Origin: a virus
Length of the DNA stretch: 63,174 bases
Direction: 5' to 3' (one strand)
IMG/VR virus record: IMGVR_UViG_3300045988_076310
The first letter of the stretch is position 1. Every line of letters starts with the position of its first letter. Shown here piece after piece: positions 46,487 through 48,007 of the stretch. A program made the position numbers and the translations under genes. Under the pieces are notes generated by a model. That model saw only the letters and a program-made list of their open reading frames with translations, was not told the origin of the DNA and ran no database searches.

Positions 46487-48007
46487 TTAGTCTTTCTTGT
46501 TACGGTATAAAACAAACCCTAATGTAAATGCTGACACACCAAGAGCAATCAGTGGTAAGCTAAGGTCACTACCGGTAGCAGGCAATACAGCAGGTGCATC
46601 ATAAGTCTTAGGAGACTCTTTTGACCCTGTGTTCTTAACCTCTACCTCTTCCTTAGGTTGTGGTTTAGGGTCTTGAGGCTTGTTAGGTTCACTAGGAACT
46701 GAAGGGATGTTAAGCTCAGGAATTTCAACTACAGGAGCAGGAGGTAGTACAGGAACATCTTCGATAGGGAGATATGGTTTATCCAATACTGGTGGAGGAG
46801 GCATCAAAGGAATATCTTCCAGTGGTAGCTCAGGAATTTCAAGTACAGGTGGTGGTGGCATAAGTGGAATATCATTGATATTCAACTCAGGTTTCTCATA
46901 CTTAGGAGCTTCATTAGGAATTTCCCAAGTTGGCTCAGGTTTATTCTCACCAGAAGCATTACCCTTACCTCCAACAAGCTGTACATAGCTATATGAGATA
47001 CCTCCGTCTGTCTCAGCCTTAATCTCAACCTTGTTGGTAGGATTATGTGACTCCTTAACTGGTTTAGTAAGCTTAGTTTTGTACCAAATGTAAATCATTC
47101 GGTCCAAACGGTTCATAGTAATTTCAAAACCATGCTCTTTCTTAGCCATTGACTTAACAAGTTCCATAGCACTTCCCTTGTCAATCCAAGGGTCAACACT
47201 ATCAACATAATTGATAACGAATGAGTCATCAATCAATTTCTGATTATCACTCATCTCATCAATAATCTTAACATAGTTAAGTACTTTACGTGCATAGTTT
47301 AAACGGATAGTCCAGTTAATCACAGTGGGGTCATCTTTATCCTGTGAACCCCATTTAGCAATAAGTTCATCCTTACCAATTACTTGTTCTTCACCAATTT
47401 GGGTTGTTACAAGAGTACCATTAAAATTGGCTGTTACAGGCTTACCTGACTCAACCTTACTAGTCCACGTAGCATCAAGCTTAAGGCTCATCTGCTTGTT
47501 AAGTGGATGAGTTGCAAAGTAGTTGTTAAACACTGTGGTCACAGTATTAGTTTCTGTGTCTGTGGTTGCCTTACCTACGACTTGCTTCTCAGGGTTGTAC
47601 ACATCAAAGTCAAAGTTAGTTTGGAATTTTACTTCCTCAGGCAAAGTAAATTTAACCTTGTCACCTTCATTGATAGTCATGCTATCATCAAAGTGAACAT
47701 CCTTATATTCTACTGTGAAAGGTGAGTATTTTCCATTCCCATTAGGTTGTTCAACTACCACATCAGGATTAGTAACTGTGATTTCATTACCTTCCTTAGT
47801 AATAGTCGTAGGAGCCTTTGTAGTGCTCTCAGTTGCATTTTCAACAGCGGTAGTGTTATTCTCCACAGAAGTAGTTGAAACCAATTCTGAGGCTTCCTGT
47901 GAGGCTACAGGTGCATCCTGAGTGTCAGCCTTAGCATTGTTAGCAATAGCAAGAGTAGCAAGTGTAGCTACAGCCAATAAAGTAGTTTTATTTTTCATTT
48001 TCATCAT
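46487..48007 (-). CDS. LPXTG cell-wall-anchored surface protein (MSCRAMM/collagen-adhesin-like)
   Basis: Signal peptide MKNKTTLLAVATLATLAIANNAKA, a beta-rich A-domain-like region, proline-rich repeats (IPELPLEDIPLMPPPPVLE...), and sorting signal LPATG (46571..46585) followed by a hydrophobic segment and the tail YRNKKD. Confidence 0.85.
   Translation of the reverse strand: MMKMKNKTTLLAVATLATLAIANNAKADTQDAPVASQEASELVSTTSVENNTTAVENATESTTKAPTTITKEGNEITVTNPDVVVEQPNGNGKYSPFTVEYKDVHFDDSMTINEGDKVKFTLPEEVKFQTNFDFDVYNPEKQVVGKATTDTETNTVTTVFNNYFATHPLNKQMSLKLDATWTSKVESGKPVTANFNGTLVTTQIGEEQVIGKDELIAKWGSQDKDDPTVINWTIRLNYARKVLNYVKIIDEMSDNQKLIDDSFVINYVDSVDPWIDKGSAMELVKSMAKKEHGFEITMNRLDRMIYIWYKTKLTKPVKESHNPTNKVEIKAETDGGISYSYVQLVGGKGNASGENKPEPTWEIPNEAPKYEKPELNINDIPLMPPPPVLEIPELPLEDIPLMPPPPVLDKPYLPIEDVPVLPPAPVVEIPELNIPSVPSEPNKPQDPKPQPKEEVEVKNTGSKESPKTYDAPAVLPATGSDLSLPLIALGVSAFTLGFVLYRNKKD

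Follow-up and report, generated by a model that had tools for sequence, protein, structure and literature searches.

Phage-encoded surface adhesins are usually discussed as lysogenic-conversion factors that benefit the bacterium. The question addressed here is what such a gene may do in a phage that lacks visible means of lysogeny. The case is provided by IMG/VR record IMGVR_UViG_3300045988_076310, a viral DNA stretch of 63,174 nucleotides (nt) that was analysed at full length and will be called the window. Its replication operon harbors, as a fixed component, an intact and selected gene (positions 46487–48007) for what is very probably a wall-anchored protein of the adhesin type. The best overall explanation, to which we give about an even chance of being right, is that the protein is made during the lytic cycle and serves the adhesion or retention of infected cells.

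Anatomy and fold of the protein

The first-pass annotation of the locus, made from the letters alone, described an open reading frame (ORF) of 506 residues with a signal peptide, a beta-rich domain, Pro-rich repeats and an LPATG motif with its tail. Each of these parts was found where it had been placed (Table 1). Read by eye, the N-terminus (MMKMKNKTTLLAVATLATLAIANNAKA, followed by DT) looks like a Sec-type signal peptide with its three regions (n, h and c); on this heuristic reading the n-region is rich in Lys, the hydrophobic core is 15 residues long, and cleavage would follow an A-x-A pattern (A-K-A before D). Further in-frame ATG codons lie at 48004 and 47998. The C-terminus reads LPATG-SDLSLPLIALGVSAFTLGFVLY-RNKKD, with 22 mostly hydrophobic residues between the motif and the basic tail. 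A profile search for an LPXTG anchor, proposed as a check in the same annotation, gave a score of 17.7 with the NCBIfam model TIGR01167, above its cutoff of 15.9; PF00746 stayed below threshold (14 for a cutoff of 20). A regular-expression scan of all window ORFs of at least 60 amino acids (aa) detected no second sorting signal, and no sortase was found among the Pfam-annotated gene calls of the window.

Conservation of these elements was examined in 120 listed homologues, which are 67–91% identical and reside on contigs of about 60–63 kb. Both the signal peptide and the LPxTG motif are kept in 120 of 120 (88 LPQTG, 31 LPATG and 1 LPVTG), and all of them also have the hydrophobic stretch and basic tail that follow it. 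The stalk contains three direct repeats of 57 nt (19 aa) each at 46713–46897, and the number of repeats differs between homologues.

Pfam identified Big_8 (residues 104–185, 2.2e-11) and Collagen_bind (residues 214–319, 5.1e-12), both over their gathering cutoffs. As predicted from these profiles, the order of the two domains is the N1-N2 layout of Cna-type adhesins. Pfam found neither Cna_B domains nor Ser-Asp repeats, and the stalk is made of the Pro-rich 19-aa repeats. A full-length AlphaFold2 model had a mean predicted local distance difference test score (pLDDT) of 48 and was replaced by a domain-only model with a pLDDT of 69, which gave the same fold matches. In both models the beta-rich core spans residues 68–343 and contains 22 strands.

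When the two models were compared with known structures using Foldseek, both matched two-domain adhesin ligand-binding regions with a probability of 1.00 and E values of about 1e-10 to 1e-11 over some 300 alignment columns. Hence, the MSCRAMM-like identity proposed in the first-pass annotation was upheld by profiles and fold alike. Most matches were Gram-positive MSCRAMMs (SdrC, SdrE, SdrD, RspB, Cna, ClfA/B, FnBPA, Bbp, SdrG, UafA, Srr1/2 and CppB), with SdrC, SdrE, SdrD, Cna, RspB, ClfB and SdrG at the top; the remainder were a few Candida Als proteins and one zonadhesin entry. Collagen binders among the matches were Cna, RspB, Cnm-N2 and CppB, and the single-domain matches to Cnm-N2 (7lgr) and Cna (1amx) had TM-scores of about 0.5. 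Two extra strands follow N2 (residues ~324–343); domain orientation in the model is too unreliable (TM-score 0.3–0.38) for a latch strand or trench of the ‘collagen hug’ or ‘dock, lock and latch’ mechanism to be recognised.

No PDB chain was matched at the sequence level, either by the single sequence or by a 47-sequence profile, and the relationship to solved MSCRAMMs is detectable only via Pfam profiles and fold comparison. No PHROGs family matches the adhesin, and the only significant match in the viral structure library BFVD is a metagenomic siphovirus protein labelled ‘Clumping factor’ (6e-11). The fold is therefore rare among catalogued viral proteins.

The phage lineage and the adhesin slot

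Bases 1–55 of the window are identical to bases 63120–63174, which shows that the assembly closes into a circle of 63,119 bp. One arm, on the plus strand, is devoted to packaging, heads, tails and lysis. The other, on the minus strand, serves replication and nucleotide metabolism and encodes PolA, a primase-helicase, a PD-(D/E)XK nuclease, AAA_24, DHFR and dUTPase. Among the lysis genes are a Dp-1-type holin and an endolysin composed of Amidase_2 and a ZoocinA target-recognition domain, with best database matches in Streptococcus phages. Because both these genes and the relatives of the adhesin lead in the same direction, the sequence points to Streptococcus as the host.

Pfam and PHROGs searches of all gene calls in the closed circle revealed no integrase, recombinase, partition (ParAB) or CI-type gene. 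The first-pass annotation had stated that neither an integrase nor a repressor module is visible. The former part of that statement stands. The latter has to be amended, as the replication arm contains an XRE-type helix-turn-helix (HTH) regulator of 119 aa (41472..41831), the only regulator in the window; it is not of the CI/peptidase type and has no integrase partner. The description of the phage as apparently virulent agrees with a closed genome devoid of a lysogeny module, a judgement that rests on absence of evidence. The lineage is probably non-temperate.

Megablast of the window backbone against catalogued phages gave no match, and the closest catalogued PolA is only about 35–37% identical. 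Homologues of the adhesin and the primase with at least 67% identity occur only in metagenome assemblies or in ‘MAG TPA Caudoviricetes’ entries, with no named bacterium as source; the contigs are almost all 65 kb or shorter, and none exceeds 200 kb. In 185,579 species-representative genomes no close copy of the adhesin was found, only copies with 55–58% identity in different prophages.

The adhesin gene lies between the primase-helicase gene, with which it shares 20 nt counted from the first adhesin ATG, and a hairpin, as had been proposed. The hairpin (10-bp stem with 7 G-C pairs, loop of 3, at 46484..46462, followed by TTTT) begins 2 nt beyond the stop codon. That it is a terminator-like structure with a T-run was confirmed, but to call it strong, as in the first-pass annotation, was generous given the shortness of the T-run. 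No promoter-like site above background was found for the adhesin gene, and no intergenic gap exists upstream. Judging from this operon structure, the adhesin is most likely co-transcribed with orf291 and the primase-helicase gene. An imperfect palindrome of ~100 nt, ATTAGGGG...TATAAGATAATTACTTA // TAAGTAAGTATCTTATA...CCCCTAAT, lies upstream of the unit and is present in three copies (50660–50829, 60367–60465 and 60506–60613), the last two in a divergent control region (60367–60613). Clade A relatives (see below) have it at the corresponding position. Its probable nature is that of a common operator/promoter or of an origin-like element.

A search with the primase-helicase retrieved 55 IMG/VR contigs of this widespread lineage, mostly of 50–63 kb, which fall into three clades according to identity with the window. 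Relevant observations on the region behind the primase can be summarized as follows:

(i). In clade A (primase 92–99% identical) the LPXTG adhesin gene comes next after the primase. In clade B (72–76%) it also follows the primase, and 2–4 kb of small genes separate it from PolA. The adhesin is intact and is the first gene past the primase in nearly all genomes of both clades.

(ii). In clade C (66–70%) the primase is followed by a gap of ~0.5–0.7 kb, usually with one ORF of ~165 aa, and then by PolA. No adhesin was found within 10 kb on either side of the clade C primase, and no clade C contig appears among the best 80 adhesin-bearing viral contigs.

(iii). A natural deletion is found in L003 (IMGVR_UViG_3300029729_000008, 9549–10315), where the signal peptide and part of N1 remain and the ORF is cut at 141 residues; the remnant is joined to the C-terminal 103 residues of an ORF located downstream in the sister genome L004. 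In L010 the primase directly adjoins the ORF that normally comes after the adhesin.

(iv). Additional genes are also found in the slot. In three clade B genomes an ORF of 168 aa with a DPPY motif, similar to methyltransferases, separates the primase from the adhesin (L012:11751-12257, L020:11751-12257 and L152:11757-12263), and the interval between the adhesin and PolA in clade B contains several DUF1642 paralogues and a YopX gene. The site is therefore a hotspot for accessory genes.

The adhesin is maintained by selection. Pairwise omega values (Nei-Gojobori, calculated for pairs with unsaturated dS of 0.34–0.49) were 0.08–0.13 for the adhesin A-domain, compared with 0.06–0.08 for the primase and 0.09–0.12 for the polymerase. 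Hence, purifying selection on the adhesin is about as strong as on the primase and polymerase. Primase dS between clades A and B is saturated (>1.5). The tree of adhesin alleles disagrees with the backbone: the allele of the clade A genome L006 is 91% identical to that of the clade B genome L019, the clade A alleles of L004, L005 and L009 group with L011 and L014 of clade B, and L018 and L028 carry a very divergent type. The slot is thus conserved while its adhesin alleles are swapped between clades.

Composition and codon usage, whose comparison with the rest of the genome had been recommended, show no anomaly: G+C content, third-position G+C and codon adaptation of the adhesin gene all lie within one standard deviation of the genome, and compositional foreignness was rejected as a sign of recent acquisition. 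A recent transfer from a temperate to a virulent phage via L012 was also considered, as the allele of this genome groups with that of prophage Javan371 in the N1-N2 tree, and is not claimed here because full-length BLAST gave no backing.

The adhesin is not a one-off gene of this phage, since the family is already annotated in temperate streptococcal phages. In tblastn searches it matches 14 phage-collection records, nine of which are temperate Streptococcus phages with 52–74% identity (Javan534, Javan535, Javan539, Javan311, Javan371, Javan536, SA-TP2 and two records of YMC-2011). Relative to the window, identities in N1/N2 are about 65–76% for most prophage alleles, ~68/73% for clade B and 62/46% for YMC-2011, whereas the signal peptide and the anchor are far more divergent (21–60%). 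The hosts of the phages whose alleles have conserved N1/N2 are S. salivarius, S. mitis and S. parasanguinis. This conservation may be a hint of a ligand that these niches have in common, and a bacterial or phage target specific to a strain would fit it less well.

The location of these homologues is recurrent. Among the species-representative genomes only five loci match, all of them in Javan311-type prophages of S. parasanguinis (55–58%). The gene order there starts with the integrase and repressor and continues with the DNA helicase, the adhesin, the RepA helicase and the resolvase. The Javan311 record itself has the homologue between the DNA helicase and RepA genes, with a spacer of ~16 nt. 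In Javan371, Javan535, YMC-2011 and SA-TP2 it lies inside a rightward early/replication operon. In the annotated temperate phages the adhesin is never beside an integrase or an attachment site. An IMG/VR scan with the adhesin alignment detected 198 contigs; of the best 80, which were examined, 27 are members of the window lineage. For the 53 others, the nearest recognisable neighbour is in 51 cases a gene for a single-stranded DNA-binding protein, a DNA helicase or RepA, a replisome organiser or an antirepressor, co-oriented with the adhesin in all except one. Altogether, all close homologues that can be placed are phage-borne and lie in replication or early modules, on at least four unrelated backbones (YMC-2011, Javan311, Javan371 and SA-TP2 types).

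A distant relative was seen in MW057932.1, ‘Campylobacter phage CJLB-5’, where positions 11294-12244 code for a hypothetical protein that shares 31.7% identity with adhesin residues 53–374. It is odd to meet an MSCRAMM domain of Gram-positive type in a phage whose stated host is Gram-negative, and either a misattribution or another mode of anchoring is possible.

Table 1. Coordinates of the adhesin gene, its encoded parts and the flanking elements in the window
Feature	Position	Strand	Details and basis
Adhesin coding sequence	46487..48007	-	506 aa; Pfam and NCBIfam matches; 120 full-length homologues
Signal peptide, residues 1-27	47927..48007	-	Predicted cleavage between ANNAKA and D; read from letters
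N1 IgG-like subdomain, residues ~67-205	47393..47809	-	Pfam Big_8 at 104-185; models; Foldseek
N2 IgG-like subdomain, residues ~206-345	46973..47392	-	Pfam Collagen_bind at 214-319; Foldseek (Cnm-N2 7lgr and Cna 1amx, TM ~0.5)
Pro-rich stalk, residues ~356-470	46598..46942	-	Predicted disordered and wall-spanning; repeats and model
Sortase sorting signal	46490..46585	-	LPATG (475-479), hydrophobic segment, basic tail YRNKKD; TIGR01167
Primase-helicase (RepB_primase + AAA_25)	47988..49739	-	Last 20 nt overlap adhesin start
orf291	49729..50604	-	First gene of putative orf291-primase-adhesin unit; faint HTH_36 match in relatives
Palindromic intergenic element, ~100 nt	50660..50829	.	Upstream of the unit; repeat search
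Terminator-like hairpin and TTTT	46455..46484	-	Just past adhesin stop codon; sequence
Small protein with a single transmembrane segment	46223..46444	-	73 aa from GGAGG-preceded ATG at 46444; clade A relatives only
DNA polymerase A	43679..45613	-	Downstream border of variable accessory slot; annotation and synteny

Several neighbouring features deserve mention. The small protein encoded right behind the adhesin terminator carries a single transmembrane helix at its N-terminus, and its charged tail resembles a coiled coil (MENILWIIIMIAQVIAFVWALIVAFISNRELKRHK...); the ATG at 46444, preceded by GGAGG, is likely to be its true start. In clade C, PolA (L153:12429-15281) is 950 aa long and a faint LAGLIDADG_3 match splits its DNA_pol_A domain, while the window PolA has 644 aa and no insertion; this arrangement suggests an intein or a homing endonuclease. 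A single tRNA-Cys(GCA) gene (61165–61235) and an HNH endonuclease gene (61464–61988) are situated a short way upstream of the Mu-F-like/terminase region. Past the holin and endolysin genes, seven plus-strand genes (27416–34527) encode proteins of 308, 414, 184, 422, 358, 394 and 282 aa without signal peptides. Several have Cys-rich motifs of the CxC type at both ends, two exceed Pfam cutoffs for adhesin domains (BspA_v in 27416–28342, 1.2e-11; MucBP in 32495–33679, 1.9e-8), and 29604–30158 and 31419–32495 have a near-identical C-terminal motif in common. One possibility is that these genes are alternative modules for receptor binding or decoration.

Possible roles of the adhesin

From established sortase biology we infer that the adhesin would be exported by the Sec pathway via its signal peptide, and that the host housekeeping sortase would cleave LPATG and link the product to lipid II, from which it would pass covalently into peptidoglycan. 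The Pro-rich repeats would span the wall and hold the Cna/Sdr-type N1-N2 ligand-binding region out from the cell surface. The gene itself is an accessory cassette that occupies a fixed slot behind the primase-helicase gene of apparently non-integrating Streptococcus phages of ~60–63 kb, in a transcription unit that would start at the 50660–50829 palindrome and end at the hairpin. As the adhesin gene lacks both a separate promoter and an upstream gap, and a terminator lies at its 3′ side, it would be transcribed with the replication genes in productive infection, and the infected cell would gain it before lysis. Expression in the lytic cycle, as read from operon structure, is accordingly the alternative we somewhat favour. 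The strongest argument is that placement in replication modules recurs, which would make lytic-cycle expression the common denominator of the family; this applies above all where room for a separate promoter is lacking, as in the window and in Javan311.

Once displayed, the adhesin might fasten infected cells to neighbouring cells or to a ligand of host origin (matrix, pellicle or a mucosal protein), and the burst would then fall inside a dense, susceptible population. The ligand and the benefit are speculative. Adhesion or retention is proposed here as the selected function because it is the known activity of the domain family, because the gene is under purifying selection and because N1/N2 are conserved across phages of different streptococci; we hold it tentatively and somewhat short of an even chance.

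A number of points weigh against a lytic-cycle adhesin of this kind. A short lytic cycle leaves little time for an adhesin to pay off. The gene is dispensable, as it is reduced to a remnant in L003 and absent from L010 and clade C. A promoter within the primase gene may serve the adhesin. The phage is uncultured and its virulence inferred, and the absence of an integrase would be compatible with episomal carriage. Two primase homologues (P0137 and P0239) lie on contigs of 122,417 and 74,445 bp, unlike the other contigs of the lineage (~50–63 kb); the two could be concatemers, chimeras, or rare integrated or co-assembled forms. As for the fold, two-domain TM-scores are low (0.3–0.38 for the domain model with mean pLDDT of 69), a consequence of poorly modelled inter-domain geometry, and binders of collagen, fibrinogen and other ligands are interleaved in the matches, which settle the fold class without pointing to one class of ligand. 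Finally, swapping of alleles at a fixed slot is also expected of a gene involved in an arms race, such as an exclusion factor.

The latter possibility was therefore weighed. A wall-anchored protein made early might mask the receptor or capture incoming phage as a decoy, shielding the infected cell and, later, the progeny. The early-operon position, the accessory status of the gene and its allelic replacement, exemplified by L006 with its clade B allele, are compatible with superinfection exclusion, and surface-exposed exclusion proteins exist (Ltp of TP-J34 and Llp of T5). However, no similarity to exclusion families was detected, since the sole PHROGs match to ‘superinfection exclusion’ has an E value of 0.84 and covers the signal peptide. 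Furthermore, a whole-domain dN/dS of ~0.1 bears no sign of an arms race, and N1/N2 remain about 66–76% conserved in most phages of different host species. Exclusion is unlikely to be the main role, yet it is a rival to be taken seriously. Another scenario is that the adhesin is expressed in a non-lytic state (episome, carrier state or pseudolysogen) and aids colonisation by the carrier, like prophage morons. All other members of the family are in temperate phages; gaps of 200–350 nt upstream of the gene in YMC-2011, SA-TP2 and Javan535 could hold a promoter of its own; the window encodes a small XRE regulator; the two longer contigs are unexplained; and SasX provides the precedent of a prophage-borne LPXTG colonisation factor (PMC7047976). 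On the other side, the closed genome has no gene for an integrase, a recombinase, partition or a CI-type repressor, the window offers neither promoter nor gap and Javan311 a spacer of only ~16 nt, and close homologues are missing from the species-representative genomes and from named isolate sources. We consider conversion improbable, though it deserves attention.

Acquisition of a bacterial or prophage adhesin by illegitimate recombination, with no function for the phage, would explain why the gene is dispensable (L003, L010, clade C) and why it sits in an accessory hotspot where L012 and L020 carry a methyltransferase-like ORF. A neutral passenger is, however, difficult to reconcile with purifying selection equal to that on essential replication genes, with signal peptide and sorting signal intact in every homologue, with retention across clades A and B despite the saturated primase dS, and with a composition that is fully host- and phage-like; we regard it as very improbable. 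Even less credible is a virion or tail-associated protein whose Ig-like domains decorate the particle. Such domains are common on virions, and BspA_v and MucBP occur in non-secreted late-arm proteins of this very phage, but a cleavable signal peptide and an LPXTG/transmembrane/basic signal direct the product to the wall instead of cytoplasmic assembly, and all structural genes are on the other strand, outside the replication arm to which this gene belongs.

The idea that the adhesin traps collagen-like tail fibres of competitors was rejected in its simple form: YMC-2011, itself a carrier of the adhesin, has Gly-X-Y tracts in its host-specificity protein (L071 5-2863; 17 + 6 triplets). No such tracts were found in the window phage or in the late region of Javan311, and apparent Gly-X-Y hits in loci of the lineage turned out to be antisense translations of the Pro-rich region.

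An attractive, if doubtful, generalization of the retention hypothesis is that temperate and integrase-less phages of oral and upper-gut streptococci alike exploit the host sortase in productive infection to coat a cell about to lyse with an adhesin of the MSCRAMM type. If so, progeny would be freed at point-blank range, and a class of lytic-cycle ‘auxiliary adhesion genes’ would have to be considered; to our knowledge, the adhesin would be the first sortase substrate deployed by a non-temperate phage. Expression in productive infection would allow phages to steer where infected hosts sit in a biofilm or mucosa, with a bearing on models of phage-host dynamics, phage therapy and colonisation in mouth and gut. 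The family is amenable to experiments, as YMC-2011, SA-TP2 and Javan311-type relatives (in isolates of S. parasanguinis and S. mitis) are inducible and reside in culturable strains.

Comparison with known systems

The closest structural parallels are the chromosomal Cna/Sdr-Clf MSCRAMMs (Cna, SdrC/D/E and ClfA/B of S. aureus, SdrG of S. epidermidis, RspB of E. rhusiopathiae and Cnm of S. mutans), which share with the window adhesin the signal peptide, the LPXTG signal and tandem IgG-like subdomains. Identity in structural alignments is, however, only 10–18%, the stalk of the window adhesin is made of Pro-rich 19-aa repeats in place of Cna_B or Ser-Asp repeats, and the gene is phage-encoded.

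Other phages are known to place proteins on the bacterial surface. SasX/SesI, encoded by a phiSPbeta-like staphylococcal prophage, is an LPXTG protein that alters host surface properties and colonisation (PMC7047976). It is a phage-borne sortase substrate, as is predicted for the window adhesin, to which it is not homologous. SasX serves lysogenic conversion, and the prophage that carries it is large and temperate. It is not known to be a two-domain protein of the MSCRAMM type. PblA, PblB and the lysin of S. mitis phage SM1 also reach the surface of the bacterium, where they promote binding to components of the host, and their display depends on lytic functions (PMC2920869). The likeness is that PblA and PblB are phage-encoded streptococcal proteins that arrive at the surface. 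The route is different, as tail proteins and lysin are freed by holin/lysin permeabilisation and bind choline non-covalently, without signal peptide or sortase, and SM1 is temperate. The lipoproteins Llp of T5 and Ltp of S. thermophilus phage TP-J34 are phage-encoded, exported by Sec, attached to the envelope, and modify the surface of the infected or lysogenic cell. They are not sortase substrates, and they differ from the window adhesin in domains and lack homology to it.

The true relatives are found in temperate streptococcal phages: Ssal_phage00024 of YMC-2011, Javan311_0032, Javan371_0023 (‘WapA’), Javan535_0035 and gp23 of SA-TP2. Their N1/N2 regions are 62–76% identical to those of the window (46% for N2 of YMC-2011), and they have the same arrangement of signal peptide, N1-N2, Pro-rich stalk and LPxTG, encoded in an early/replication operon on the replication strand. 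The phages themselves are of siphovirus type, with 33–44 kb, an integrase and a repressor, whereas the window phage has 63 kb, no integrase, its own PolA and primase-helicase and an unrelated backbone. Literature searches retrieved no functional study of this temperate family and nothing specific on sortase substrates encoded by lytic phages; a study of S. salivarius surface proteins does not mention the prophage-borne members. A link to the abundant salivary single-virus genome 92-C13 was considered and dropped, as the corresponding paper contains no adhesin and no usable sequence information. In summary, the existence of an LPXTG adhesin family in YMC-2011 and Javan prophages was already known from annotation. 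What is new is its presence on a large, integrase-less backbone with autonomous replication, the fixation of the gene in a primase operon, its maintenance at the population level, and a rule of residence in replication modules that holds across backbones.

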